From an uncultured Elusimicrobia bacterium (GTDB lineage Bacteria > Elusimicrobiota > Elusimicrobia > UBA1565 > UBA9628): a DNA stretch of 64,000 nt. The notes below the pieces were generated by a model. It had not been told where the DNA came from. It worked only from the letters and a program-made list of their open reading frames with translations, and made no database searches. Each line of letters opens with the position of its first letter. Position 1 is the first letter of the stretch. The stretch spans positions 10,796-74,795 of the forward strand of contig CAYHPY010000004.1 in the NCBI GenBank assembly GCA_964358485.1, written 5' to 3'. This document shows, piece after piece, positions 6,710-58,100 of this stretch. The translations under genes were made by a program, and so were the position numbers.

Positions 6710-7288
6710 TCAGGCTTCTTTGCGGCGGATCAACTCCAGGGCCGCCGCGGGGGTCGCCGCTTGAGAAAGCTGCTCCACCAGATCCGGCTGGAAGAAGAAG
6801 GAGACTTCCCGGAGCATCCGCAGGTGGGGCTGGATGAACTCCTGTTTATCCGGGGAGAAAAACAAGAACATGACCCGGATCACCAATTGGGGATCCGCAA
6901 TCCCCTGGGGGACCAAGGCCATCCCGGCCACGATCCGGGAAATCGATTCCAGGCGCGCGTGGGGAAGGCTCAAACCGGTATCCAAGGTGGTGCTGACCGA
7001 TTTCTCCCGATCGACCACCTTGGCCAGGAGCGCGTCCTTGTTCGAGAATCCGTGTTTGGCGCAAAGGGCCGTGACCAGGCCCTCCAGAAGGGCTCCCTTG
7101 TCCTGGCCGGGCTGGGCCACCAGGATCACGTCCTCGCTCAAAAGCTCGGAAACCGGAGACGATTTGGCCTTGCCCTTGGACGGCTTGGCCGATCCGGCGG
7201 CGGGCGAGGAGGCCTTCTCCTGGGGCATCGGCTCCGGGGGAGGGGGCGGGGGAGGCGTGGATTTCTTCTGGAACCAACCGAGCGACAT
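6710..7288 (-). CDS. PTS EIIA-type (EIIA-Ntr/fructose-type) regulatory domain protein with Pro-rich N-terminal extension
   Basis: MSLGWFQKKSTPPPPPPPEP... is followed by a PTS_EIIA_2-like domain (ALLEGLVTALCAKHGF...LPHARL...VIRVMFLFFSPD). The start is inferred at MSLGW. The longer track ORF upstream is GC read-through. Confidence 0.7.
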   Translation of the reverse strand: MSLGWFQKKSTPPPPPPPEPMPQEKASSPAAGSAKPSKGKAKSSPVSELLSEDVILVAQPGQDKGALLEGLVTALCAKHGFSNKDALLAKVVDREKSVSTTLDTGLSLPHARLESISRIVAGMALVPQGIADPQLVIRVMFLFFSPDKQEFIQPHLRMLREVSFFFQPDLVEQLSQAATPAAALELIRRKEA

Positions 7289-7318
7289 AGGCGTCCGGGC
7301 ATTATAGTAGAATGGCCC

Positions 7319-8101
7319 ATGGTTCGCAAGCGGTCGGGGGCGGGAACCCTTCGGGGCCTGACCTTGATCCTGACCCGCCCCCGCAATCAGGCGGGGGAGA
7401 TGGCCGCCGCCCTGCGCGCCGCGGGGGCAAAGGTGGTCCTGGCCCCCTTGATCCGGATCGAGCCCCCGGATTCCTGGGCGCCCCTGGACCGGGCCCTGAC
7501 GAACCTCGGCGGCTTCGACGCCGTCGTGTTCGCCAGCGCCAACGCCGGAGAAGCCTTCTTTTCCCGGGCACAATCCCTTCGATTGGGCGCCCTGCCGCGG
7601 CCCCTCCGTCTTTTCGCCGTGGGGCCCGGAACGGCCCTGAGCCTGGCCGCGCACGGCTGGCCCGGAGCCGTCCAGCCCGCCAAAAATCAAGCGGAGGGCC
7701 TGGCACGGCGTCTGGGAGCGGTCCGAGGCTGGAAAATCCTCATTCCGCGGGCCGCCGAGGGGAGGGAGGCCCTCCCCCGGCTGCTGAGAAAAGCCGGGGC
7801 CAAGGTCACTTTGGCCCCGTGCTACCGGACCCGTCCGGATAAAGCCGGAGGGCGGGTCCTGGCCCGCGCAACCGGCCGCGGCGGGGTCCTCGTCGCCTTC
7901 GCCTCCCCGTCGGCCGTCAAGGCCGCCCGGAAGGCCTTGGGAGCCTCGGGGTTTCGCTCTTTGTTTCGAGGGGCAGGGGCGGCGGCCCTGGGTCCCGTGA
8001 CCGCCGCCGCCCTTAAAAAGTTCGGCGTCGTCGCCCGCGCGGTTTCCCTGAAACCGACGGCGGCGGGACTAGTGGACGCCCTCGCGGAGAACCTCGCGTG
8101 A
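7319..8101 (+). CDS. hemD: uroporphyrinogen-III synthase
   Basis: MVRKRSGAGTLRGLTLILTRP...GAKVVLAPLIRIEPP in the first half and ILIPRAAEGREALPRLLRKAGAKVTLAPCYRT in the second half are the HemD duplicated-half motifs. The start is inferred 30 nt from the divergent PTS gene. Confidence 0.75.
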   Translation: MVRKRSGAGTLRGLTLILTRPRNQAGEMAAALRAAGAKVVLAPLIRIEPPDSWAPLDRALTNLGGFDAVVFASANAGEAFFSRAQSLRLGALPRPLRLFAVGPGTALSLAAHGWPGAVQPAKNQAEGLARRLGAVRGWKILIPRAAEGREALPRLLRKAGAKVTLAPCYRTRPDKAGGRVLARATGRGGVLVAFASPSAVKAARKALGASGFRSLFRGAGAAALGPVTAAALKKFGVVARAVSLKPTAAGLVDALAENLA

Positions 8102-9707: not shown

Positions 9708-9981
9708 CCGCGAAAGGTTCGTGGACCGCCTCGTGTCCCGGCTCTTGGGGACCGGGGTCGCCGTCAGCGGTCTGCTGTTGGCGGCGGGCCTGTTCACGGC
9801 CGCGCCGATGGGCGAACGCCTTCTGCACTGGGGAATCGTTTTGCTCATCGCGACCCCGGTGTCCCGGGTCGTCCTGTTGGCCGGCGCGTTCGCGGCCCAA
9901 AAAGAGTGGCGGATGTTCTGGGCCAGCGCGGGCGTTCTTGGGCTACTGGCGGCGGGGGCGTTGACGGGAGCCGGCCACTAA
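9700..9981 (+). CDS. small membrane protein (DUF1634-like TauE partner)
   Basis: A 93-aa protein with two TM helices. It overlaps the TauE gene by 8 nt, the common TauE-DUF1634 arrangement. Confidence 0.55.
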   Translation: MADRERFVDRLVSRLLGTGVAVSGLLLAAGLFTAAPMGERLLHWGIVLLIATPVSRVVLLAGAFAAQKEWRMFWASAGVLGLLAAGALTGAGH

Positions 9982-10961
9982 AACCGGTAGCCCAACCAGA
10001 ACCGGTTGGTCGAGCCGATGTCGCCGAAGGGGACCCAGGCGTAGTCGATGAAAAACCGCTCGAAATCCAGGCCGGCCCCGAGGGCCAGGCCGGAGAGGCC
10101 CTCGACTTTCCGGGAGTAGCGGAGGTTGTAGCCGCCCCGAAAGAGCGCCTTCCAGGGTTTGGGCCGCTGAAGGGGAACGTGGCCCTCCAGGCCCATGGTC
10201 AGGTAAGGGTCGTTGTCCACCGGGAGGTTGTAATCGAACGCGGTCTTCAAATACGGGGTGGTGTGCCACAGAACCCCGGTGCGGATGTGAAAAGGAAGTG
10301 GATCTGATTCCTGCCCCAGCTTGAGAGGGCTTCCCAGGTTGAATACGCTGCAACCCACGTCCACGGGGCCGTCCCCGGCCTCGGTCAGCCGGAGAAACTG
10401 CGCCCCGAAATCAAAGGCGACCGCGGAACCGGACACGTTGTCGATCGAGGAGCGGATCACCTTGGCGCCGCCGCCAAGCAAGAGGCGGCCCAGCGCGCCC
10501 GCGTAGGCCGCCGACAGGGCCATGTCCCCGGCGGAAAAAGATCCCGCGGAATCGCCGAGGGCGTTGTAGGCGGTCTGTTCGGACTGCGAAAAATACACGA
10601 ACCCCAGCCCCAACGCTCCTTTTCCCAACGGCGCCGCGTAGGCCAGGGCCCCCGAGTGCGCCCCTTCCAGGAGATTGTTGTATCCGATCCCCGCCTCGGA
10701 AAGCGCCGGAGCGGGCCGCCGGGCGAGCCCCGCGGGGTTGAAAAAAACCGCCTCCGCGCCCTCGGCGCCTCCGGCGGCGACCTCCGCCATTCCCATGCTT
10801 CGGGCCCCCGGAGGCGACTTCAGAAAAGCCGCGCCCACCGAGCCGGCCGCTTTCCGCGAAAACGCGCCGTCGGGAAACATCGCGGCCTGGGCGGCGAAAG
10901 GAAACGCCAGGCAGAAACCGGCCGACGAGATCAGGCCGAAGGGGGAGAGTCCGGATTTCAA
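9978..10961 (-). CDS. PorV/PorQ-like (FadL-like) outer-membrane beta-barrel, paralog 1
   Basis: A signal peptide is followed by the N-terminal motif SMGMAEVAAGGAEGAEAVFFNPAGLA. The protein has alternating beta-strand character and ends in the aromatic terminus GYRF. It is a paralog of ORFs 42534..43541 and 61067..62074. Confidence 0.7.
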   Translation of the reverse strand: MKSGLSPFGLISSAGFCLAFPFAAQAAMFPDGAFSRKAAGSVGAAFLKSPPGARSMGMAEVAAGGAEGAEAVFFNPAGLARRPAPALSEAGIGYNNLLEGAHSGALAYAAPLGKGALGLGFVYFSQSEQTAYNALGDSAGSFSAGDMALSAAYAGALGRLLLGGGAKVIRSSIDNVSGSAVAFDFGAQFLRLTEAGDGPVDVGCSVFNLGSPLKLGQESDPLPFHIRTGVLWHTTPYLKTAFDYNLPVDNDPYLTMGLEGHVPLQRPKPWKALFRGGYNLRYSRKVEGLSGLALGAGLDFERFFIDYAWVPFGDIGSTNRFWLGYRF

Positions 10962-12055
10962 ATCGGCCAGACCGGGCCCTTGCGGGCGGGCTTGGCTTCC
11001 GACGCGTCGGCCGGCTTCTCTGAGAGAGACTCGAGGACCATCGGCGTCGGATTCGGAAGCTTGACGGTGGCGTCGGGATTCTTGACCGGAGCGGGAGGAG
11101 GAGGAGGCGGCGGGGGAGGCGGCTCGATCGAAAGGGCGGGGGGCGCTTCTTCTGTCGGGGGCTTTGCGACCAGCCCGGCCAGGGCGGGAGGAACGTCCAA
11201 TTGGATGGACATGGAGGATTCGGGTTCGGCGGCCTTGGGAGAGTTGGGCTCGGGGACCGCTTCGGGCAGGGAAGACCCCGCCATGAGAGCGTCCAACGGC
11301 GCCCCATGGGGCCGGGCGTCCATGTCTCCCAGAATATCCGCGGCGGGAGCGGCGGGTTCCGGAGCCTTCATCGGAAGATCGAAGGAGGGGACATCGGGCG
11401 CGGAAGCGGGCGGCTCCGCGGGAGCGGGGGCGGGGGCGGGAGCGGGGGCGGAGGCAGGCGTGGCCGCGACGGGCGCGGGGGCCGCCGGCGCGGGCGCCAG
11501 GGCGGCAGTTTTGACTTGCGAGGAAAGTTCCTCGAGCTTCTTGAGGATCAGGCTATCCTGATTTAGGAGCCCCGCCTGCTGACTCTCCTGCTTGGTGAGC
11601 AATGTCTTGATCACCGCCACTTCCTTGTCCAGGCGGTCAAGCTGGGATTTGATGTTCTGCATGTAGACCACGGCCGGACTAATGCCGCCGGTTGTGTTTT
11701 CGGCTTTTTTCTGGCCGGCGGCGGCGGCCGCCGTCGCATCGGGCGCGGGCGCGGGCGCAGGCGCGGGTGCCGGTGCCGGTGCGGGCGACGGAGCCTTGAT
11801 CGGCGCAGGAGCGGGAGCAGGCGCCGCGGCCGGAGCCGTGGGCGGGAGCACCAAGGTCTTTTCAATCGCGGGCGATTTCACCGCGACGGGCATGAGCGGA
11901 GGAAGCGGGAAGGACTCGGGCTCGTGCGAATCCTGCCGCTCCGGAGCGCCGGTCGCTTTCTTATATTGGCTGAGGAGATATACGAAAAGCGCGGAACTGA
12001 CGCAGAAACCGAGGGCGGAAACCCAGAACCAAGCGTCCTTGATGAGGTTGGCCAT
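10958..12055 (-). CDS. membrane-anchored Pro/Ala-rich coiled-coil protein (hypothetical)
   Basis: It has an N-terminal TM helix (WFWVSALGFCVSSALFVYLL) and long (PA)n tracts. A central heptad coiled coil reads LDRLDKEVAVIKTLLTKQESQQ. It overlaps the downstream barrel gene by 4 nt. Confidence 0.55.
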   Translation of the reverse strand: MANLIKDAWFWVSALGFCVSSALFVYLLSQYKKATGAPERQDSHEPESFPLPPLMPVAVKSPAIEKTLVLPPTAPAAAPAPAPAPIKAPSPAPAPAPAPAPAPAPDATAAAAAGQKKAENTTGGISPAVVYMQNIKSQLDRLDKEVAVIKTLLTKQESQQAGLLNQDSLILKKLEELSSQVKTAALAPAPAAPAPVAATPASAPAPAPAPAPAEPPASAPDVPSFDLPMKAPEPAAPAADILGDMDARPHGAPLDALMAGSSLPEAVPEPNSPKAAEPESSMSIQLDVPPALAGLVAKPPTEEAPPALSIEPPPPPPPPPPAPVKNPDATVKLPNPTPMVLESLSEKPADASEAKPARKGPVWPI

Positions 12056-12117: not shown

Positions 12118-13590
12118 ATGAAATTGATCCTCGCCCTCTTGCTCACCGGGCCCGCCTCCGGAGCTCCCAAGCCTTTCCCGGGAGAAAATTGCGTCCGCTG
12201 CCACGCCGCGTTGAGGGACAAGGTCCCCGGCCCGGCGGCTTCCAAGGCTCCGACCGACGCTGGGACCTACGACGCCGTCATCATCGGGGGGGGGCTCAGC
12301 GGCCTTTCGGCGGGCCACTTCCTTAAGAAGCGCAAGCTCCTCATTCTGGAGGCGGAATCCAAGCCGGGGGGACGCGCGCGCCGGGAATCCTTCGGGGCGA
12401 ACCGGAAGTACCCGACCGGGGCGGTCTACACCTCCGAGCCTTACGGGGCGATCAAAACGCTATACGACGATCTCGGGCTCAAATCCAAGGTCATCACCAT
12501 GACGGCCCACAGCCTTTACAGCCAGGGCAAGGTTTTCGAGCATTGGCTCCGGGCCGACGGCAACGGCCTGCCGGAAAACTCCTTCACCCCCGAGGACCGC
12601 GCGGCCTACAAGCGCCTGAGCGCCAAGATGAAGGAGCTCGTCGAAACCCACGCGCTCACCATCCCGATCGAGGAAGCCCCGAAAAGCGCCCTGGACGAAT
12701 ACGACTCGATCTCGTTCTGGGATTACCTGGAAAAAAATTACGGCAAGCGCCTGGCCGAGGTCGGGGACATCTACGCCCGCGACGTTTTCGGCGACGGCGC
12801 CCGGGAAGTCTCCGCCTACGCCGGCCTTACCTACCTGGCGGTGGAGCAGGACGTCAGCAAAACCTGGGAGGGCGGCATGGGCGAGATCCCGGAAGCCCTG
12901 CATCGGGAGCTCGGAAAATCGGTGAGAACGGGGGCCTTAGTCTGGAAGGTCGCCCAGGACGCGGAGGGAGTCGACGTCTTCTACTCAAAGGACGGGAAGG
13001 ACTTCAAGGCCCGGGGGAAAACCGCCGTCATGGCCGTCTCCTCCTTGGTCGCCCGCCGGATCGTCGCGGGCCTGCCCGAGGACAAACTCAAGGCCATGGC
13101 CCAGACCCGTTATTCCTCCTACGCCCTGGTCCCCTTGAAGCTGAAAAAAGTGGTCTGGGCCGATTCCTTCGTGTTGTGGATGCGGGACGCCTTCGTCACC
13201 GATTTCACCTTGCCCCGGGCCGACAACGCGTCCCTGAAGGCCCACCCCGAGAAGGGCCAGGTCCTGGTGGGCTACGCCCCCATGGGGGGGGCGGCGGGCC
13301 GGAAATACCTGCTCGCGGCCCCGGATGAAGAGCTGAAGTCCCGGGCGATCGCCGACCTGGAGCGGGCTTTTCCCGGAGCGTCCTCGCAGGTCGAGGAAGC
13401 GCGGGTGATCCGGTGGGGGCACGCGATGCCCTTGGCGTTTCCAGGTTATCTGGCCCAAGTCCGCCCGATCATCGCCCGCCCCGAGGGGCGTATTTTCTTC
13501 GCGGGGACCGACACTCAGCTTCCCGCCATGGAAGGCGCGATCTACTCGGGATTTTACGCCGCCGAAAAGGCGTCGGCTTTGCTCAAATGA
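12118..13590 (+). CDS. secreted FAD-dependent amine oxidase-family flavoprotein with N-terminal CxxCH (putative heme c) motif
   Basis: A signal peptide is followed by ENCVRCHAAL, then a GxGxxG FAD fold (YDAVIIGGGLSGLSAGHFL) and amine-oxidase-like C-terminal motifs (IFFAGTDT...EGAIYSG). Confidence 0.75.
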   Translation: MKLILALLLTGPASGAPKPFPGENCVRCHAALRDKVPGPAASKAPTDAGTYDAVIIGGGLSGLSAGHFLKKRKLLILEAESKPGGRARRESFGANRKYPTGAVYTSEPYGAIKTLYDDLGLKSKVITMTAHSLYSQGKVFEHWLRADGNGLPENSFTPEDRAAYKRLSAKMKELVETHALTIPIEEAPKSALDEYDSISFWDYLEKNYGKRLAEVGDIYARDVFGDGAREVSAYAGLTYLAVEQDVSKTWEGGMGEIPEALHRELGKSVRTGALVWKVAQDAEGVDVFYSKDGKDFKARGKTAVMAVSSLVARRIVAGLPEDKLKAMAQTRYSSYALVPLKLKKVVWADSFVLWMRDAFVTDFTLPRADNASLKAHPEKGQVLVGYAPMGGAAGRKYLLAAPDEELKSRAIADLERAFPGASSQVEEARVIRWGHAMPLAFPGYLAQVRPIIARPEGRIFFAGTDTQLPAMEGAIYSGFYAAEKASALLK

Positions 13591-15821
13591 AGCTGTCGAC
13601 CGCCGCCCTGCTTCTGAGCTTGGCGTCTTACGCGGGGGCTTGGGAGGAGAAACCCAAAGGGCCGCCGCCGCCGCAGAAGAAGCCCTGGCAGGAGCAACCA
13701 AAAAGATGGCAGGATTGGGGCCAGCAGAACCCCCAGGAGCCGGCCCCTGCCCCCAAACCCCCGAAAACCGTCATCGTCCCCTTCGGAGGAGGAGACAACG
13801 CCATGCCTCCCCGCCAACCCCGGACCGGGCCCTCGAAGCCCCCGGTCATGAAGGAGTTCAAGGAGGAGGTTTCGCGCCTGGTGTCGGCCTATGTCGAAGC
13901 GAAGGCCGCGGGCAGCGGAGGGGTGTTCCTGGTCACCGACACCGACGGGAGCCAACTCAAGCTCACCCGCCCAAGCTTGAAAGGCGGCCAGATCCGGAAC
14001 CTGCCCAACGGCCAGGTCGCGGCCTGCGTCTTTTTCGCCGACGCTTCCGGGGGGGCGCGCGGGGCGGACCTGGATTTCATCCTCTCCAAGGAATCCGGGG
14101 ATTGGACCGTCGCCAAGCTTTTTGTCCACGCGGTCGGCGGGAGCGCCCGGTACGACTATGACCCCGACAACCGGATCGTGGCCGCGGCTTCGGCGACCAG
14201 GCCCCAAAATCCGGCCGCCCCCCGCGCGAGCCGCTCCCCGAGGCCCACCGCGCCCCCGCGGTTGGCCGTCAAGGTCGCTTTCGTCGAGCCTTCCGGAAAC
14301 GACATCCTGGACGGAGGGGAGACCGCCGAAATCCGGGTCACGGTCTCCAACTCGGGAACCGGGGAGGCGTACGGGGTCAGCGTCGCGGCGGCGATGAACC
14401 CGGCGGCCAAGGGCCTGTCCTTGCCGGCGCCGGCCGAACTGGGGAATATCAGGCCCGGAAAATCCGCGTCGGCCCGCCTGACCGTCTCGGCCGCCGAATC
14501 CGCCCCGGACCGCACCGCCCGAGTGTCCGTGGAGACGCGGGAGGCCAACGGCTTCGACGCCGAGGCAAGCGTCTTGGAATTCGAGATCCGCGCCTACCGC
14601 CCCCCCCGGCTGGAAGTGGCCGGCCTGGAGCTCGAGGGGGCCGCCGTGGTCAAAGCCGGGGAGCCGACCAAATTCAAGGCGACCCTCCGCAACGCGGGGG
14701 CCTCGGCCGCGCGGGGAGTTTCGGCGCGGCTGGTCATCGACAGCCCGGACATTTTTCCCTCCGGGGAGGAGAGCGTTTCCCTGGGCGTCCTTCCTCCCGG
14801 GGAAACCAAGACCGCCTCCTTCGAGTTCTTCGTCAACAAGCGCTTCAAGGGGGGAAAGGCCCTGCCGCTTTGGTTGGAGCTCACCCACGCGGGGCCCGAC
14901 GGACCCCGGCCGGAAAAGGCTCCGCTGTCCCTGGCCCTGGGGAAAACCCCGGACGCCCCGAAGGTGCTCAGCATCAAAGGGCGGCAGGAGCTTCCCGCCC
15001 CGGCGGGAGAACCGGCCTCCGCCCTGGAGGAGCCGCCCGCCTCCCGCACGCCAAAAAACCCGGATGCCTACGGCGTGGTCATCGGGATCGAACGCTACCG
15101 GGACGTTCCGCCGGTCTCCTATGCCGCGTCGGACGCCCGGACCGTTTACGCCTATCTCACCCAGTCCATGGGATTTGACCCGAAGAACGTGATCCTTCTG
15201 GAGGACGACCGCGCGGCCCTGACCGACATCGACACCTACCTTGGGCCATGGCTGTCGGACCGCGTCGGCCCCAAAAGCAAGGTCTTCGTGTTCTACGCCG
15301 GGCACGGGGCGCCCAACCCGAAAACCGGAGAAGCCTACCTGATCCCATTCGACGGCAATCCAAATTACGTGGAGACCAAGGCTTATCCGATCCGCAAGCT
15401 CTATGAGGGCCTGTCGAAACTCCCCTCCCGGGACGTGACCGTGGCGTTGGACGCCTGCTTCTCCGGTGCGGGCGGCCGGTCGGTTCTGGCCAAGGGAGCC
15501 CGGCCCCTGGTTCAGATGGGCGCCCCGGTCCCGGCCGGGGATAACCTGGTGATCCTGACCGCCTCGGGCCCCGATCAGATCAGCACCTTCCACGAAGAGG
15601 GAAGGCACGGCCTGCTGACCTATTTCCTCCTCAAGGGCTTGCGGGGGGAGGGGGACTCGGACAAGGACGGGCGGGTGACCACGGGAGAGTTGTTCTCCTA
15701 TCTGAAGCCCGCCGTCGAGCGGGAGGCGCGCCTTCAGCACGTGGAACAGGTCCCCACCCTCACCCCCGCTCCGGAAAACCTCGGGGAACGGGCCGACGGG
15801 GTTTGGCTCCGACTCAAATAA
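13587..15821 (+). CDS. secreted caspase-family (peptidase C14) protein with two CARDB-like domains and C-terminal EF-hand-like loop
   Basis: The start MKLSTAALLLSLASYAGA is inferred and overlaps the upstream stop (ATGA). Two CARDB-type Ig-like domains read ETAEIRVTVSNSGTGEAYGV and EPTKFKATLRNAGASAARGV. The caspase His/Cys dyad is VFVFYAGHG ... ALDACFSGAGG, and a DSDKDGRVTTGEL loop follows. Confidence 0.75.
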   Translation: MKLSTAALLLSLASYAGAWEEKPKGPPPPQKKPWQEQPKRWQDWGQQNPQEPAPAPKPPKTVIVPFGGGDNAMPPRQPRTGPSKPPVMKEFKEEVSRLVSAYVEAKAAGSGGVFLVTDTDGSQLKLTRPSLKGGQIRNLPNGQVAACVFFADASGGARGADLDFILSKESGDWTVAKLFVHAVGGSARYDYDPDNRIVAAASATRPQNPAAPRASRSPRPTAPPRLAVKVAFVEPSGNDILDGGETAEIRVTVSNSGTGEAYGVSVAAAMNPAAKGLSLPAPAELGNIRPGKSASARLTVSAAESAPDRTARVSVETREANGFDAEASVLEFEIRAYRPPRLEVAGLELEGAAVVKAGEPTKFKATLRNAGASAARGVSARLVIDSPDIFPSGEESVSLGVLPPGETKTASFEFFVNKRFKGGKALPLWLELTHAGPDGPRPEKAPLSLALGKTPDAPKVLSIKGRQELPAPAGEPASALEEPPASRTPKNPDAYGVVIGIERYRDVPPVSYAASDARTVYAYLTQSMGFDPKNVILLEDDRAALTDIDTYLGPWLSDRVGPKSKVFVFYAGHGAPNPKTGEAYLIPFDGNPNYVETKAYPIRKLYEGLSKLPSRDVTVALDACFSGAGGRSVLAKGARPLVQMGAPVPAGDNLVILTASGPDQISTFHEEGRHGLLTYFLLKGLRGEGDSDKDGRVTTGELFSYLKPAVEREARLQHVEQVPTLTPAPENLGERADGVWLRLK

Positions 15822-15837
15822 GCTATAATCGCCCCTC

Positions 15838-16494
15838 ATGGCAGAGGCCTTCGTCCTTGAAAGCGTGGAACCCGGGGAATCCCTTTCCTGGGCCTCGCGC
15901 CTGCTGAGCGGCGAGCCCCAGGATGCCTTCGCCCCCTCCGAGGCCGCCGATTTCGCCGTGCTAAAGACCGACAAGCGCCGCCGGGATTGGACCGGGGGGC
16001 GGTTGGCGGCCAAAAGGGCCGCCTCCAAGGCCATCGGAAACCTTCCCTTGGGATCGATCCTGATCGAAAACGAGCCTGGCGGGGCCCCGCGGATGAGCGC
16101 CCCCGGCGCCCAATTGCCCTTGTCCATCACCCATACCGACGCCGGGGCCGCTTGCGCCGTTTCCATGTCGGGGGGGCCCATCGGAATCGACTGGGAAATG
16201 GTCCGGCCCTTGGACGCCGGAACCTTGAGCCTCGCGTTTCACGAGGACGAACTGCCCTGGGCCATGAACGCGTCTCCCCGGGACCTAGCCCGGGCCTGGA
16301 CGGCCAAGGAGGCCGTGATCAAATTGCTGAAATCCGACCTTTCCTCCCTGCGAGAGGTCCGCCTTTCCGGCCCGGACTCCACGCCCCGGCTCCACGGCGC
16401 GGCCGCCTTGAAATGGGAGGAACTCGGACGGCCCGCGCTGACCGTGTTTCACGCCCACCATCCCGATTCGGTCCTTTGCGTCGCCCATGGCTAA
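15838..16494 (+). CDS. 4'-phosphopantetheinyl transferase (Sfp/EntD type)
   Basis: The PPTase motifs LSITHTDAGAACAVS and WTAKEAVIKLLK are present. Confidence 0.75.
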   Translation: MAEAFVLESVEPGESLSWASRLLSGEPQDAFAPSEAADFAVLKTDKRRRDWTGGRLAAKRAASKAIGNLPLGSILIENEPGGAPRMSAPGAQLPLSITHTDAGAACAVSMSGGPIGIDWEMVRPLDAGTLSLAFHEDELPWAMNASPRDLARAWTAKEAVIKLLKSDLSSLREVRLSGPDSTPRLHGAAALKWEELGRPALTVFHAHHPDSVLCVAHG

Positions 16495-18106
16495 AGCCAA
16501 ACCCGAACCCACGCCTCCCACCCCTCCGGCGCCCGCCCCGATTCCGGCGCCGAGCTCGGGGGCGAACGGCCGCCTCAAGGCCGCCGTGGACAAAGCCCTC
16601 CAGGGCGGAGGGGAGGCCCGGGTTCAGGCCCAAAAGACCCGCGGGAAGTTCACCGCCCGGGAGCGAATCAACTACCTCCTCGATGAGGGAACCTTCCTGG
16701 AAACCGATCTGCTGGTCAATAGCCGGGCCACCGAGTTCGGGCTCAAGGGGAAACACATCCCCGGGGACGGCGTTATCACCGGTTTCGGCCGCATCAACGG
16801 GCGCGACGTCTGCGTTTACTCCCAGGATTTCACGGTTCTCGGAGGCTCGCTCGGCATCGCCCACGCCCGCAAAATCTGCAAGATCATGGATCTGGCCCAC
16901 GACAACCGGGTCCCCGTGATCGGCCTTCTGGATTCCGGCGGCGCCCGCATCCAGGAAGGGGTGGATTCCCTGGACGGCTACGCCGAGATCTTCCACCGCA
17001 ACGTCAAATCCTCCGGGGTCATCCCCCAAATTTCCGTGATCCTCGGCCCCTGCGCCGGCGGGGCGGTCTACTCCCCGGCCCTGACCGACTTCGTGTTCAT
17101 GGTGGAAGGGGTCAGCCACATGTTCGTGACCGGCCCCGACGTGGTGAAGGCAGCCACCGGAGAGGAGGTCACCTTCGACGCTCTCGGGGGCTGCGAGGCC
17201 CACGCCGGAAAATCCGGGGTCTGCCATTTCGTGGCCAAATCCGAGCCCGATTGCTTCCGCCAGGTCCGCGAACTTCTTTCCTTTCTCCCCCAGGGCCGCC
17301 ATGAGCGCGCTCCCCGGGTGGCCAACCCGGACCCCGTCCGGCGCGCCACGCCCCTGCTGGAGAAAATGTGCGAGCTGGACCCGCGCAAATCATACCGGAT
17401 GCACCACATCATCTGGCAGATCGCCGATGAGCACAAGTTTTTCGAGGTCCACGCGGGGTTCGCGCGCAACATCGTGGTCGGCTTCATGCGCATGGGCGGC
17501 GACGTGGTCGGGGTCGTGGCCAATAACCCCGGGCACATGGCCGGCGCCCTGGACATCGACGCCTCCGACAAAGCCGCGCGCTTCATCCGCATGCTCAATG
17601 CCTTCAACATCCCGATCGTTTCCCTGGTCGACGTCCCGGGCTACTGGCCGGGCGTGCAGCAGGAGCACGGCGGCATCATCCGCCACGGCGCCAAGCTCCT
17701 GCACGCCTACGCCGAGGCGACCGTGCCCAAAATCTCCGTGATTCTACGCAAGGCCTATGGCGGCGCCTACATCGCCATGAGCTCCAAGCACCTCAAATCC
17801 GACTTCAATTTCGCCCTGCCCTGCGCCGAGATCGCGGTCATGGGGCCGGCCGGCGCCATCGAAATCCTTTTCTCCCGCGAGATCGCCGCCGCCCCGACGC
17901 CCGAGGCCAAGGCCCAACTGCGCGCCAAGCTGGCCAAGGACTACGCCGACAAATTCGCCTCGCCTTATCAGACCGCCTCGACGGGCTCCCTCGACGAGGT
18001 CGTCGAGCCCAGCCACATACGCTTCAAGATCGTCCGCGCCCTGCGCTTTCTCAAGGACAAGCGCCGCCCGGGCGACAGCCCCAACCGCGGAAACATCCCG
18101 CTTTAA
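16487..18106 (+). CDS. acyl-CoA (propionyl/methylmalonyl-CoA) carboxylase carboxyltransferase subunit
   Basis: A 539-aa PccB/AccD5-family protein with carboxyltransferase N and C domains: TARERINYLLDEGTFLE, GGSLG..., DVPGYWPGVQQEHGGIIRHGAKLLHAY. Confidence 0.9.
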   Translation: MAKAKPEPTPPTPPAPAPIPAPSSGANGRLKAAVDKALQGGGEARVQAQKTRGKFTARERINYLLDEGTFLETDLLVNSRATEFGLKGKHIPGDGVITGFGRINGRDVCVYSQDFTVLGGSLGIAHARKICKIMDLAHDNRVPVIGLLDSGGARIQEGVDSLDGYAEIFHRNVKSSGVIPQISVILGPCAGGAVYSPALTDFVFMVEGVSHMFVTGPDVVKAATGEEVTFDALGGCEAHAGKSGVCHFVAKSEPDCFRQVRELLSFLPQGRHERAPRVANPDPVRRATPLLEKMCELDPRKSYRMHHIIWQIADEHKFFEVHAGFARNIVVGFMRMGGDVVGVVANNPGHMAGALDIDASDKAARFIRMLNAFNIPIVSLVDVPGYWPGVQQEHGGIIRHGAKLLHAYAEATVPKISVILRKAYGGAYIAMSSKHLKSDFNFALPCAEIAVMGPAGAIEILFSREIAAAPTPEAKAQLRAKLAKDYADKFASPYQTASTGSLDEVVEPSHIRFKIVRALRFLKDKRRPGDSPNRGNIPL

Positions 18107-18919: not shown

Positions 18920-20365
18920 TTAACGGCGGAGGTACTTGGCCACCAGCCACTCGACCGGGGCGCGGTCGTCGGTGAGCTCCTGGCCGGGGCGGCAGGCGAG
19001 CATGTCGGCCCCGATTCCGGTTTCGAAGCCCGTTCCCTCCAGAATATTCTTGGAGAGAACACCATCGGGGCGGTTTCCCGCGACGAGGATGACGTTCTGC
19101 ACTCCCCGGCCGAGCCCGTGGATGGGATGCAGGCGGACCTCAGGAAACTCCGCGGACAGGGACTGGGCGATCGCGCAGAGCAGTCCCTCCTTCTCCAGCA
19201 CGTCGCCGATCACGTTGAGCCCCAGGATTCCGTCGGACTTGAGCCCCCGGCGGACTTCCGCGAAAAACTCGCGGGTGGTGAGGTGGAAGGGAATCGACAT
19301 GACGCCCTGGTAGGCGTCCACGAAAACCCCGTCCAGGCTGGCGGCCTCGCCGCGCAGGGCCTGGCGTCCGTCGGCCACGCGGGTGCTCAGATTGGGGGCT
19401 TCCCCGGCCCGGAAATATTTCCGGGCCACGGCGTCGACGACCGGGTCGACCTCCGCCACGATGACGGAAGCCGCGGGCAGGGCCTCGGCCGCGCGCAGGG
19501 GCATGCTGAAGGCCCCGCCGCCGATGAAGAGCAGGCGCGCGGCCGCCTTGGGACCGAGAATGTTCGGAAACAACCGCCAGGCGCGGGTATACTCGAACAC
19601 CATTTCCTTGTCGGCCAGGCGCATCGCTCCCTCGTGCGTGCTGTCGAGCATCATCAAGCGGGTCAAGTCCGCCCCGGCGCCCTGCTCGAAAACCCGGACC
19701 AGCTGGTAGGAGGACTCCTTGGAGAAGACCGGTTCGGCGTCCATGTAGCTGACGGGCCGGGCGTTGGCGCGGGCGGCGCCGACCAGAGCCAGCGCGTAAA
19801 CGGCGACGGCCGCGGAGGCCTTGCCCCAGGAGGCCCCGCCCAGAAAGACGCGCAGGCCGAGGGCCAGGACGGCCAGGCCGACGCCGATGGCGGCGAAAAG
19901 CCCGCGCACCCCGTAGGCGGGGATCAGCCAAAAAACCGTGGCCATCGTCCCCAGGATGCTTCCCGCCGCGGCCAGGGCCGAACCGACGCCCGAGGCCACC
20001 GAGGGACTGCGCCCCTGGGCCGTCCAGATGCCGACGACCACCGGAGAAAGACCCGCCAACGCGGCGGCGGGCAGGCCGAACACCGCGAAACAACCGAAGA
20101 GGGGGGGATAAACCGACGGGGAGCCCGAAGGCGCCAGCAAAAGCAGGTCCGCCGCCCAGGGCACGCAGGACACCAGGAGCCCGGAGGCCAGCAACTCGGC
20201 GAAGGCCAAGGACGGCCGGTTTTTCGAGCGCTCGGAGAGCCAACCGCCCGCCAGATACCCGAGGAACAACCCCGCCACGATGATGGCGATGACCGAGGAC
20301 CAGGTGAAGACGGTGTTGCCGAAACGCGGGAACAGCAGACGCGTGGCCAGAAGCTCCACGCCCAT
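18920..20365 (-). CDS. spermidine/spermine synthase-family aminopropyltransferase fused to an N-terminal polytopic membrane domain
   Basis: The N-terminal ~190 aa are multi-TM. The C-terminal domain (LLFIGGGAFSMP...VIVAEVDPVV...GVFVDAYQG) is a class-I SAM/dcSAM-binding spermidine-synthase-like fold. Confidence 0.7.
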   Translation of the reverse strand: MGVELLATRLLFPRFGNTVFTWSSVIAIIVAGLFLGYLAGGWLSERSKNRPSLAFAELLASGLLVSCVPWAADLLLLAPSGSPSVYPPLFGCFAVFGLPAAALAGLSPVVVGIWTAQGRSPSVASGVGSALAAAGSILGTMATVFWLIPAYGVRGLFAAIGVGLAVLALGLRVFLGGASWGKASAAVAVYALALVGAARANARPVSYMDAEPVFSKESSYQLVRVFEQGAGADLTRLMMLDSTHEGAMRLADKEMVFEYTRAWRLFPNILGPKAAARLLFIGGGAFSMPLRAAEALPAASVIVAEVDPVVDAVARKYFRAGEAPNLSTRVADGRQALRGEAASLDGVFVDAYQGVMSIPFHLTTREFFAEVRRGLKSDGILGLNVIGDVLEKEGLLCAIAQSLSAEFPEVRLHPIHGLGRGVQNVILVAGNRPDGVLSKNILEGTGFETGIGADMLACRPGQELTDDRAPVEWLVAKYLRR

Positions 20366-55199: not shown

Positions 55200-58100
55200 A
55201 TGCGAGGATTTCAATTTGGGCGGACCGGGCTCTTTTTGGGGCTGTTGTCCGCCCTACTCTGCGCCCAGGCCTCTAGGGCCTCCGCCGCCGTCTTCGCCGA
55301 CCGCTACTCCCACTCCTCGACCCTCCTGGCCGATGGAAACATCCTGATCGCGGGCGGTTTCGTGGGCGGCGCCGCCTCCGGCAATACGCAGCTGCGGGTC
55401 GACATGCGCGACACCTACCTCAATCTCGCCCCCATGGCCGTCGCCCGGGCCTCTCACACCGCCACCTTGCTGCCGGACGGGCGGGTCCTGGTGGCCGGCG
55501 GTTTCGACGGAGCCGTCGCCGTCACCGGCGCCGAATTTTACAACCCGGTCACCAACGCCTGGACCGCGGCGGGAGCCATGAACAACGCCCGCTACAACCA
55601 CACCGCCACCCTGCTTCGAAACGGAAACGTCCTGCTTTGCGGCGGCCAAACCCAGACCGGGGCGCTCCAAGCGAAGTGCGAAATCTTCAACATCACCACG
55701 GGCTTTCAGGCCGCCGGCAGCGTGCCGGACATGCTCACCCCCCGCACTCACCACACCGCGACCCTCGTCGAGGGCGGGCGCGTCTTCTTCACCGGGGGCT
55801 TCAGCGCCGCCGTGACCCCCAATTACATGCCCCTGTCCGAGGTCTTCGATTCCACCGCGGTGGCCACCGGGGCCAACTGCGTGGCCGGGGTGGGCTGCTT
55901 CATCCCCGCCCGCCCTTTGAACGAAGGCCGGGCCTACAATACCGCCACCTCGATGGGAAACGGGAAGGTCATGATCGCGGGCGGCTATTCCGGGCGCGAG
56001 CGCGATGGGAGCCGGGGCTACCTGGAAAGCACCGAGATCTACGACCCGATCGCCGATTCGATGATCACCGCCCCCGCCTTGAAGACCCGGATGATGGGCC
56101 ACACCGCCACCATGTGGAATGACGGGCAAATGCTCGTCTACGGAGGCCTCGGAAACATCACGACCACCTACTTGACCGGGGGCTACACCATCAACAACGG
56201 AAGCCTTCTGACCGGGCGCTTCGTTCTCCCCAGCGGCGCGGCCGGTTCCCTTTCCACGATGACCGTCCCGGCCGCGGCCACTCCTTCCGTCATCTCCGTG
56301 ACCATGGATTTCCCGCTTTCGGTCCCGGTCACCGGGAGCATCCATCGGGGACGGATTCTGTTCTCCACCCCCTCGATCACCTTCCCGGACGGGGTGGCCT
56401 ATCTGAATTGGGCGACCTCGGGAACCCTCACCAACGGCCTCCAGGCCGATCTCGCGGGAGTTCGGGTGGGGTGCACCCCCACCGGAACCTGCGGGAAAAT
56501 CACGGAAACCTTCCTTCTAAAGCAGATTACCGGGGTCTACGCGATGCGGGACCGCGCCACCTCGGTCTACCAATTCTTCGCCACCCAAGGCTCCTTCACC
56601 TTCATCGGCGGGAACATCACCCCCACCTCCCCGGCCCGGACCGTGACCGACGGCTACATCCACGGACCGGTCCAAATCCCCGTCCCCGGGGATTACATCG
56701 GAGCCAGCATTTCCAGCGGAACCTTCACCATCACCAGCGGCAGTTTCGCCAAGCTTTCGACCGGAACCGTCAGCATGATCCAGGGGGGCTACCTGGTCAT
56801 TCCCGCGGGGACGACGATCGTCGCCGATCCGACCGTTCCGGGGGGGGGCATGATCAGCCTCGCCTCGGGGGATTTCAACCGCATCATCGGCACGGTGGTG
56901 GGAAACGGCGCCGTCGAGTCGGCGTCTTCGGTCCAATGCGTTCCCGACGGGGCGACGGCCCCGGGCTGTTCGAACGTCTCCTATGTCAGCACCGTGGCGT
57001 TTTCCGCCTCGGGGAATTTGAAATTCGTGGTCGACCGGATCGACCTTTCCGGGAAGTTCCTGAACGTGGACAAATCGACGGTCATCATCGAGTCCATGGT
57101 CTTCAGCGATTTGCAAAAATTCTCCCCGAAAGACAATCAGTGGGCCGTCACCGCCGAGGGCCGCGGGGCGATTTCCCAATTCAACCACACCGCCGTTTTG
57201 TCGCCCACCTCCTCAATCAAATTCCTGGGCGGCCGCACCTGCGACAACACCGGCACCTGCGCCGTCCTGGTCGCCACCTCCGCCACGACCCTCCTGGGAA
57301 AGCTCGATACCTGGACGGCCGGCGGCAATATGGCCAACCCCCGCGGCCACCACACCGCCACGGTCCTTCCGACCGGGAAGGTCCTTGTGGCGGGGGGCAC
57401 CGACGGCCCCAACACCTGGGCCAGCGCCGAACTCTACAACCCCACGAGCCGGACTTTCGCCGCGACCGGTTCGATGAAACACGCCCGGGACCTGCACACC
57501 TCCAGCCTCCTTCCCAGCGGGCGGGTCCTGGTGGCGGGGGGTTTCTCTCCCGGAACGGCCAGCACGGGCGCCACCAACACCTCCGAAATATACTATCCCG
57601 ACTCCGCCGTCTGGATTCCCACCTCGGTCATGATCTCCTCCCGGGACAGCCACACCGCCACCGTCCTGCCCGACGGCAACGTCCTGGTGGCCGGGGGCTA
57701 CAACCGCGGGGTCTACCAGAATACCGCGGAAATTTTTTACTCCACGGCGGGGGTCTGGCGGCAGATCGCCAACATGCCGAACCGGCGGGCCAATCACACC
57801 GCCACCCTCCTGCCCAGCGGGGAGGTCCTCCTTTACGGGGGCATCAACGAGACGGGGGTGCTGGGCGCGCCGGTGTCCTACAATCCGATCACCGGCCTCT
57901 GGTCGGCCCGCACCAACACCACCTTCACGATCAACCGCACCTATCACCACACCGCCACCCTGCTTCCCAGCGGAGAGGTGCTCTTCCTGTTCGGCAACGA
58001 CGGGACGGGAACCATGGGAGTGGGTCAGCCCTATTTCCGCGAGATCTACGATCCCCTCTCCGACCTCTGGAGAACGGCCGCCGCTCAAGACATCGAGGCC

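Follow-up and report, generated by a model that had tools for sequence, protein, structure and literature searches.

Two overlapping genes encoding predicted exported proteins

The locus described here lies in a stretch of DNA from an uncultured Elusimicrobia bacterium (assembly GCA_964358485.1, contig CAYHPY010000004.1, positions 10,796 to 74,795 of the forward strand), which in its full length of 64,000 nucleotides we call the window; positions are those of the window unless another locus is named. The window has a G+C content of 66 %, and two overlapping genes on its plus strand, the open reading frames ORF-A and ORF-B, are the subject of this analysis. A sequence-only reading had assigned to ORF-A a leader, a CVRCH motif, a GxGxxG motif and an Amino_oxidase fold, and to ORF-B, over 744 residues, a leader, an N-terminal domain without family match, two CARDB domains, a C14 caspase domain with a His/Cys dyad, and a DxDxDG loop; it had also noted that the stop of ORF-A overlaps the start of ORF-B in the sequence ATGA. 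All of these features are in place (Table 1), and the three families concerned, Amino_oxidase, CARDB and Peptidase_C14, are all matched in Pfam. The leaders of both proteins were judged by eye and against orthologs.

Table 1. Positions of the features of ORF-A, ORF-B and the two genes that follow them (aa, amino acids; FAD, flavin adenine dinucleotide; AF2, AlphaFold2)
Feature	Positions	Strand	Basis
ORF-A, predicted exported protein of FAD amine-oxidoreductase fold, 490 aa	12118-13590	+	Pfam, AF2, Foldseek, hhalign
Putative Sec-type signal peptide of ORF-A, residues 1-16 (MKLILALLLTGPASGA), without twin-arginine motif	12118-12165	+	By eye
F-x-G-E-x-C-x-x-C-H-x-x-[LIV]-R-D motif of ORF-A	12175-12219	+	Ortholog conservation
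CVRCH of ORF-A: His29, predicted proximal heme ligand; Cys25 and Cys28, predicted thioether sites	12190-12204	+	
GxGxxG (GGGLSG), dinucleotide-binding motif for FAD	12286-12303	+	Motif; G57, G59, G62 invariant
Asp222 of ORF-A, equivalent to Asp282 of Pseudomonas aeruginosa SpdH (PaSpdH)	12781-12783	+	Alignment columns, MAFFT family alignment
RWGHAMP of ORF-A	13411-13431	+	Invariant in ortholog and family alignments
His435 in RWGHAMP, predicted distal heme ligand	13420-13422	+	Aligns with PaSpdH His562
ATGA overlap of ORF-A stop (TGA) and ORF-B start (ATG) (CAAATGAAGC)	13587-13590	+	Sequence
ORF-B, predicted exported orthocaspase-like protein, 744 aa	13587-15821	+	Pfam
N-domain of ORF-B, about residues 90-200, about 110 residues	13854-14186	+	AF2; no Pfam match
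Two CARDB/immunoglobulin (Ig)-like beta-sandwich domains of ORF-B, about residues 226-446	14262-14924	+	Pfam CARDB, 2 stretches, E 7e-11
Peptidase_C14 domain of ORF-B, residues 497-726	15066-15764	+	Pfam E 1.6e-12, 48.1 bits (cutoff 21.4)
Dyad His573 of ORF-B (YAGH573G)	15303-15305	+	
Dyad Cys624 of ORF-B (DAC624FSG)	15456-15458	+	
EF-hand-like loop of ORF-B, canonical DxDxDGxxxxxE (DSDKDGRVTTGE), residues 690-701	15654-15689	+	
4'-Phosphopantetheinyl transferase (PPTase) gene	15838-16494	+	Pfam ACPS
Carboxyltransferase gene	16487-18106	+	Pfam Carboxyl_trans

ORF-A as a flavoprotein amine oxidoreductase

Residues 60-483 of ORF-A match the Pfam family Amino_oxidase (PF01593; E 4e-34; 119.1 bits, cutoff 19.8), with NAD_binding_8 as the second family. 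Its N-terminus consists, in order, of MKLILALLLTGPASGA, PKP, FPGENC25VRC28H29AALRD and then GGGLSG (57-62). Cys25 and Cys28 are its only cysteines, and CVRCH is the sole CxxCH among the approximately 50 likely genes of the window. The AF2 model, built from the ortholog alignment, has a predicted local distance difference test score (pLDDT) of 91.4; residues 25-33 are helical, and confidence is modest in the N-terminal segment (residues 21-30, pLDDT ~61). The top Foldseek matches of this model in the PDB are monoamine oxidase A (MAO-A; E 8e-29, template modelling score ~0.72), protoporphyrinogen oxidase and putrescine oxidase (PuO), and SpdH of P. aeruginosa (7D9F-7D9J) is within the top ten. 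As ORF-A has both the MAO/PuO-like two-domain fold and the N-terminal GxGxxG Rossmann motif, we assign it to the flavoprotein amine oxidoreductase superfamily and predict that it binds FAD and oxidises C-N bonds. HpnE, PigB, protoporphyrinogen oxidase and CrtI were rejected as identities of ORF-A, their NCBIfam scores lying far under the cutoffs, as was a lipoprotein anchor, there being no lipobox ahead of Cys25. PADLOC returned a desaturase-like match for ORF-A and a generic caspase match for ORF-B, neither of which implies a defence system.

A predicted SpdH-type heme site

To our knowledge, the spermidine dehydrogenase SpdH (PA3713 of P. aeruginosa) is the only heme-containing member known within the fold of ORF-A; its structures were reportedly described by Che et al. 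in FEBS J in 2021. A published account that cites this work (PMC12564564) describes PaSpdH as carrying FAD and a surface-exposed heme b with His54 and His562 as axial ligands, notes that addition of spermine leads to reduction of the heme via FAD, and gives the electron path as FAD to heme to cytochrome c or ferricyanide. The PaSpdH sequence, which we recovered via a plasmid-borne homolog, contains the stretches ...LRGSH46PGAFEVAH54QMGW...EEY74DLVVVGGG...NRWSH562GY. In a MAFFT alignment of 20 diverse family members (six CxxCH orthologs of ORF-A, eleven distant homologs and three SpdH sequences), 14 columns are invariant; they include H29 = His54 and H435 = His562, and the remainder are mostly glycines of the FAD-binding core. 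Independently, hhalign of the ORF-A ortholog profile against an SpdH profile (probability 99.7 %, E 5.5e-26) pairs the same residues, C-V-R-C-H29 with F-E-V-A-H54 and RWGH435 with RWSH562. These alignments support the conclusion that His29 of the CxxCH motif occupies a proven heme-ligand position of a solved homolog and that H435 would be the other axial ligand. The sequence-only reading had suggested a periplasmic flavocytochrome-like enzyme, and this gains support and can be refined, since the CxxCH histidine falls on an SpdH heme-ligand position and is joined by a second conserved histidine.

The position of H435 is also suggestive with respect to the flavin. In a profile alignment to rat MAO-A, it lies one residue ahead of Cys406 (chain position 414 in 1O5W), the cysteine covalently bound to the 8-alpha-methyl of FAD, and because it adjoins this position, the ligand histidine would sit at the electron-exit edge of the flavin. 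The distant homologs P0021-P0042 (~25-29 % identity to ORF-A) have twin-arginine leaders and also show an N-terminal ...H-x-[LV]-R-D-G and a C-terminal [RW]-[WG]-G-H. A 43-residue SpdH fragment used as a query matched only short fragments, in which an 'AH-x-LRDG' motif is visible; phmmer searches of the PDB with distant homologs (P0021, P0028 and an N-terminal fragment) gave alignments of the Rossmann region only.

The CxxCH and RWGH residues might instead bind a metal ion or merely stabilise the N-terminal helix, leaving ORF-A with FAD as its only cofactor, and the modest AF2 confidence of the N-terminal segment would fit such a protein. We regard this as the least likely of the explanations considered here, given that both histidines map to crystallographically defined heme ligands of a homolog and that the two are gained and lost jointly across the family, as described below.

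Features that bear on substrate specificity agree with PaSpdH only in part. The substrate-site residue Asp282 is retained as D222 (in most, but not all, ORF-A orthologs), whereas Tyr443 is replaced by L337, the SpdH-specific insertions are missing and overall identity is ~20 %. D282 and Y443 are residues mutated in the solved SpdH structures, D282 to Ala in one of them. A polyamine-like amine as the substrate of ORF-A is a guess.

Conservation of the motif and its covariation with the export leader

A word-indexed protein database search returned about 20 orthologs of ORF-A (39-100 % identity), and those that are named come from Elusimicrobia; an identical protein is also encoded on a contig of the Hainich groundwater assembly Hain_H52. 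A scan of GTDB species representatives located 10 Elusimicrobia loci with an ortholog, a set that partly overlaps the first. Genomes that carry an ortholog include GCA_947085715.1, GCA_016194745.1 and GCA_001800015.1. The sequence-only reading would have fallen had CxxCH been absent from orthologs; it is present, at 35-73 % identity, in all that were found, 20/20 from the database and 10/10 at the species-representative loci. An alignment of 22 ortholog sequences shows no variation at C28 and H29 and almost none at C25. The motif F-x-G-E-x-C-x-x-C-H-x-x-[LIV]-R-[DE] begins 3-6 residues after an AxA-like leader end in every ortholog, and all share the C-terminal RWGHAMP. Among 24 other CxxCH relatives checked, eight have no cysteines beyond the CxxCH pair, and the additional cysteines of the rest are not position-conserved. 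This pattern indicates that the CxxCH of ORF-A is more than a chance occurrence.

Beyond the orthologs, an exhaustive profile search gave 975 cluster representatives (E <= 1e-30), the best 150 of which, at 50 % identity or less, were aligned to a broad profile. The N- and C-terminal histidines are both present in 121 of the 150 and both absent in 17; the 12 discordant cases are mostly N-terminally truncated fragments. Within the same set, leader type follows the residues ahead of the N-terminal histidine: a twin-arginine (RR) leader is found in 74 of 83 forms with the histidine only and in 20 of 22 with a single cysteine (x-x-x-C-H), but in one of 17 CxxCH forms, the other 16 being without it. 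The 22 single-cysteine representatives (among P0074-P0195), in which a lone Cys directly precedes the heme-ligand histidine, thus mostly keep twin-arginine translocation (Tat)-type leaders. At least four distinct subgroups have CxxCH at the site, namely the Elusimicrobia clade, P0076, P0081/82/85 and P0087/P0093, and the leaders of all of them are non-RR.

Apocytochromes c are exported unfolded by the Sec pathway and receive heme outside the cytoplasm, while heme-b and FAD proteins are folded in the cytoplasm and leave by Tat. On this basis, the association of CxxCH with non-RR leaders and of the histidine-only forms with RR leaders is the one expected. The same logic, Sec for heme c and Tat for the folded flavoprotein, has been stated for pairs of flavin amine oxidases (FAOs) and cytochromes c (PMC12224317). 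In ORF-A, both SpdH-type ligand histidines are present and the Tat leader of PaSpdH (MTISRRDFL) is not; its leader, MKLILALLLTGPASGA, lacks RR and looks Sec-like. Because the CxxC stands directly ahead of the ligand histidine throughout the Elusimicrobia clade, covalent heme c is the most likely state of the cofactor, and the requirement of heme c for Sec export would explain why the CxxCH clade has Sec-like leaders where the heme-b relatives have Tat leaders.

Alternatively, His29 and His435 could hold heme b non-covalently as in SpdH, with CxxC forming a periplasmic disulfide or redox switch. The histidine alone suffices in SpdH and in most of the family, and the 22 representatives with one Cys beside the histidine, most of which have Tat leaders, mean that a Cys there is by itself no proof of a heme c attachment site; nor did the 64-kb window or the 443 kb of related loci show any maturation genes. 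We nevertheless think heme b unlikely. The exact C-x-x-C-H spacing is constant across 35-73 % identity, and CxxCH arose in several subgroups, each time with loss of the Tat motif, a coincidence that is hard to reconcile with a disulfide and is required for heme c.

Proposed electron path and points that weigh against it

We conclude that ORF-A is probably an exported FAD-dependent C-N (amine-type) dehydrogenase with a single SpdH-type heme, most likely covalent heme c, and that ORF-B would be an unrelated neighbour. In the model we propose, the heme would lie on the surface of the protein, held between the short N-terminal helix (His29) and the C-terminal RWGH loop (His435), the latter at the dimethylbenzene edge of the flavin. 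Substrate would be oxidised at the flavin, reducing FAD, and FADH2 would pass electrons one at a time to the His29/His435 heme, from which, being exposed, they would go to a periplasmic acceptor or carrier and not to O2. Covalent heme c would demand that ORF-A is exported unfolded by Sec and is loaded with FAD outside the cytoplasm. The sequence-only reading had taken ORF-A for a hydrogen peroxide (H2O2)-generating amine oxidase; an internal heme acceptor as in SpdH points the other way, and we consider a dehydrogenase more likely than an H2O2-producing oxidase.

Several observations count against this proposal. The association of leader type with motif (Fisher p = 5e-9, by a simpler, regex-based classification) is between phylogenetically related sequences, so that the p value overstates their independence, and an RRSFL leader is present in one CxxCH member. 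The catalytic domain of ORF-A is, in overall sequence, closer to MAO/L-amino-acid oxidase (E 1e-34), with SpdH more distant (E 3e-21), and the spacing from the histidine to the Arg-Asp is one residue off from that of the Tat-type relatives. No cytochrome c domain is recognisable in ORF-A by Pfam or NCBIfam, the whole heme-binding N-terminal segment being ~15-20 residues. Export by Sec would oblige the flavoprotein to take up its FAD in the periplasm, an unusual route. Finally, the 64-kb window and the 443 kb of related loci yielded neither Ccm nor CcsBA genes nor additional CxxCH proteins; a search for WWD motifs of heme lyases and for multi-CxxCH ORFs, across the window and all loci, turned up only the cytochrome c of Duffyella (see below) and is uninformative, not truly negative. 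Groundwater Elusimicrobia do encode cytochrome c oxidase, alternative complex III, NrfAH and NirS (10.1101/765248), and c-type cytochromes therefore exist in the phylum.

Comparison with known systems

Of the systems compared, SpdH is the closest to the proposed ORF-A. Both have the flavoprotein amine oxidoreductase fold, with D282 kept as D222, and the export of SpdH, its ligand histidine in an N-terminal segment ~20 residues before the GxGxxG strand and its second ligand histidine in a C-terminal R-W-x-H loop all have predicted counterparts in ORF-A; the flow of electrons from FAD to heme to an external acceptor described for SpdH is likewise predicted for ORF-A. They differ in length (490 residues in ORF-A, 620 in SpdH) as well as in the features relevant to substrate given above, and ORF-A has a Sec-like leader in place of Tat and CxxCH in place of xxxAH, which predicts covalent heme c where SpdH has heme b. 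The plasmid pEM01 of Duffyella gerundensis (locus L010, 2360-5216) encodes an SpdH homolog of full length (E 2e-229 against PaSpdH) and, 10 bp further on, an annotated cytochrome c with three CxxCH motifs that may be its natural electron acceptor.

Cytochrome-c-dependent dehydrogenases are already known among the FAOs: NicA2/CycN, Pnao, more than 100 predicted pairs and the fused subclade 3F (PMC12224317, PMC9396064). They resemble our reading of ORF-A in being periplasmic members of the amine oxidase superfamily with heme c, not O2, as the electron acceptor, and in some of them the heme protein is on the same polypeptide, as predicted here. Systems of the NicA2/CycN type, however, have Tat leaders and a complete class I cytochrome c domain, separate or fused, and ORF-A has neither, only a five-residue attachment motif in an SpdH-type site; no other CxxCH ORF that could serve as an adjacent cytochrome of this type is present in the window or beside any ORF-A ortholog.

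The flavocytochrome c3 fumarate reductase Fcc3 (FccA) of Shewanella (PDB 1D4C-1D4E) is a single Sec-exported polypeptide in which N-terminal c-type heme precedes an FAD domain, and its FAD is loaded outside the cytoplasm. Unlike ORF-A, it has four hemes in a domain of ~100 residues, a flavin domain of the succinate dehydrogenase/fumarate reductase type and a different chemistry. The sole match to Fcc3 in our searches was a Rossmann-motif alignment obtained with the N-terminal fragment of a distant homolog as query. In overall sequence and fold, the ORF-A catalytic domain is matched best by MAO-A/B, putrescine oxidase and the L-amino-acid oxidases, but these are O2-reactive oxidases that lack a leader, an N-terminal heme segment and the RWGH histidine, the FAD-linked cysteine of MAO standing one residue beyond the position of H435. 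A literature search found no paper that joins flavocytochrome, amine oxidase and CXXCH. From this comparison, ORF-A is most likely a c-type, Sec-exported, minimal-motif form of the known SpdH-like flavohemoprotein.

We further suggest, tentatively and with somewhat more doubt than conviction, that the SpdH heme site, far from being peculiar to a few proteobacterial spermidine dehydrogenases, may mark out a large, almost entirely uncharacterised superfamily of flavohemoprotein dehydrogenases of the periplasm, and that this site may have switched repeatedly between heme b with Tat and heme c with Sec. On this view, ORF-A would be a flavoenzyme that bears a minimal 'one-helix cytochrome c', the smallest known c-heme module in a flavocytochrome, and would by nature be an enzyme of direct electron transfer. 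The putative superfamily comprises ~1000 clusters (E <= 1e-30), both histidines having been checked in the best 150 only.

Dehydrogenases within the 'amine oxidase' superfamily were recognised recently, with NicA2/CycN in 2021 and a broader survey in 2025, and the heme fold of SpdH was described as novel in 2021. If our reading is right, the SpdH-type heme site would extend to distant phyla, and heme b would have been exchanged for heme c together with the export route within one enzyme family, a clear natural experiment in the limits that the chemistry of a cofactor sets on protein targeting. A compact FAD-heme c enzyme on a single polypeptide would be of interest for direct-electron-transfer biosensors, a use that SpdH already has, and an extracytoplasmic electron-donating enzyme would be added to the little-known respiratory repertoire of groundwater Elusimicrobia.

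ORF-B, a predicted exported orthocaspase

ORF-B has a signal-like N-terminus (MKLSTAALLLSLASYAGA), a proline-rich linker, an alpha/beta N-domain, two CARDB domains and the C14 domain, in this order. The search gave only about eight relatives of like architecture, each of them from an Elusimicrobia-type assembly. The sequence-only reading had made conservation of the caspase dyad a point on which it could fail; both His and Cys are kept in full-length orthologs, architecture and dyad being conserved in P0048-P0052 and the dyad also in the paralog at locus L001, and the EF-hand-like loop is conserved among the relatives of ORF-B. Against the NCBIfam model caspase_w_EACC1 ('caspase, EACC1-associated type'), ORF-B scores 73.7 bits, under the cutoff of 140.

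The AF2 model of the whole protein is mediocre (pLDDT 63.7), with the CARDB region all-beta (pLDDT ~80-89) and the N-domain formed by one long helix packed on a sheet of about seven strands (pLDDT ~65-80). Foldseek with the whole model found only tandem-Ig proteins (integrins, transglutaminases) and did not match the fold of the N-domain. This domain is kept in all CARDB-caspase orthologs and could be a pro- or inhibitor domain. ORF-B shares with bacterial orthocaspases and Peptidase_C14 proteins the p20-like domain, the His/Cys dyad, the C-terminal EF-hand-like loop and the presence of variable accessory domains, and differs from them in its predicted export, its unique alpha/beta N-domain and its two CARDB domains. 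We regard ORF-B as an independent, probably exported protease of the orthocaspase type with two Ig-like domains, an ordinary, if rarely seen, architecture.

Gene neighbourhood and the oxidase-caspase pairing

The sequence-only reading had also proposed that the two genes work together, ORF-A as a secreted oxidase that uses O2 and produces H2O2 and ORF-B as its coupled CARDB-caspase, in peptide or polyamine catabolism or in antagonism. The ATGA overlap within a same-strand string of genes that has no terminator signal, the export leaders on both products and, in one related genome, a shorter C14 paralog lying 3.5 kb downstream of the oxidase are all compatible with such a partnership. We nonetheless consider it very unlikely, and the absence of co-conservation has already largely refuted it. 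Among ~14 oxidase loci, adjacency is seen in this organism only (the window and its contig L012). The pair is absent at L013/L014, which carry the closest ortholog of the oxidase (73 %), and at 11 further oxidase loci with unrelated neighbours, and no oxidase is found at the three caspase-ortholog loci recovered. The locus of the 73 % ortholog is otherwise syntenic, with an opposite-strand Pro/Ala-rich gene, the oxidase, the PPTase and the carboxyltransferase in the same order; there the oxidase runs directly into the PPTase gene and no caspase gene is present. The conserved heme site, which favours a dehydrogenase, argues in the same direction.

The genes around the best caspase orthologs are likewise of other kinds. 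The true ORF-B ortholog (54 %) of GCA_947085715.1, a genome that also has the oxidase, is on a separate contig beside Suf genes, and the remaining caspase loci adjoin PPK or glycan genes. At the oxidase locus of this genome (L001, 57 % ortholog), five genes separate the oxidase from the carboxyltransferase: an opposite-strand S41 peptidase, a toxin-antitoxin pair, two genes without family match and a shorter C14 paralog that lacks CARDB domains. Here the PhdYeFM/ParE toxin-antitoxin pair (L001 11584-12146) and the S41 peptidase are insertions that separate the oxidase from the C14 paralog, which marks the locus as a hotspot of gene insertion.

In the window, the string of genes goes on beyond ORF-B into the PPTase and carboxyltransferase genes, which overlap in the same manner (16487-16494) and are cytoplasmic, housekeeping-type genes in a tightly packed string (15838-18106). 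A promoter and terminator scan found no terminator-like sites above chance and two promoter-like matches, neither of them between ORF-A and ORF-B. As the pair is not co-conserved and the string continues into these overlapping genes, the ATGA overlap reflects compact packing and not shared function; the pairing is incidental, that of chance neighbours in one genome. The case is a caution that a four-base overlap of start and stop is no evidence for shared function.

Upstream of the oxidase, the sole recurring neighbour outside the close synteny group is a CTP_transf_like gene (cytidylyl/adenylyltransferase, ~162 residues), which lies directly ahead of it at two other loci in two distant Elusimicrobia genomes (L003 7509-7997 and L007 1427-1921), with a gap of at most three bases. 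In Elusimicrobia RIFCSPHIGHO2_02_FULL_57_9 (L019/L006 4867-7242), a single open frame of 791 aa holds an LpxL-type lipid A acyltransferase domain followed by the oxidase ortholog; the hydrophobic leader is internal, and the ORF is either a real fusion or hides an internal start.

Other genes of the window near ORF-A include two adjacent ones on the minus strand (9978-12055), divergent from the oxidase, that encode a PorV/PorQ-family outer-membrane protein (NCBIfam 122.7 bits) and a 365-residue N-anchored Pro/Ala-rich protein of no family; both are syntenic in L001, and L013 retains the Pro/Ala-rich gene. A HemD (uroporphyrinogen-III synthase) domain, of tetrapyrrole synthesis, occupies residues 213-438 of a 446-residue ORF (6761-8101, plus strand; the start is probably over-called) that lies 4 kb upstream of the predicted hemoprotein ORF-A, an arrangement repeated in L001. 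About 5 kb downstream of ORF-A, a multi-pass membrane protein of 481 residues (18920-20365, minus strand) has a C-terminal spermine/spermidine-synthase-like domain (22.2 bits against a Pfam cutoff of 22.9), which might hint at polyamine metabolism. Farther along the plus strand, an ORF of 1956 residues (55200-61070) begins with a signal-like N-terminus.

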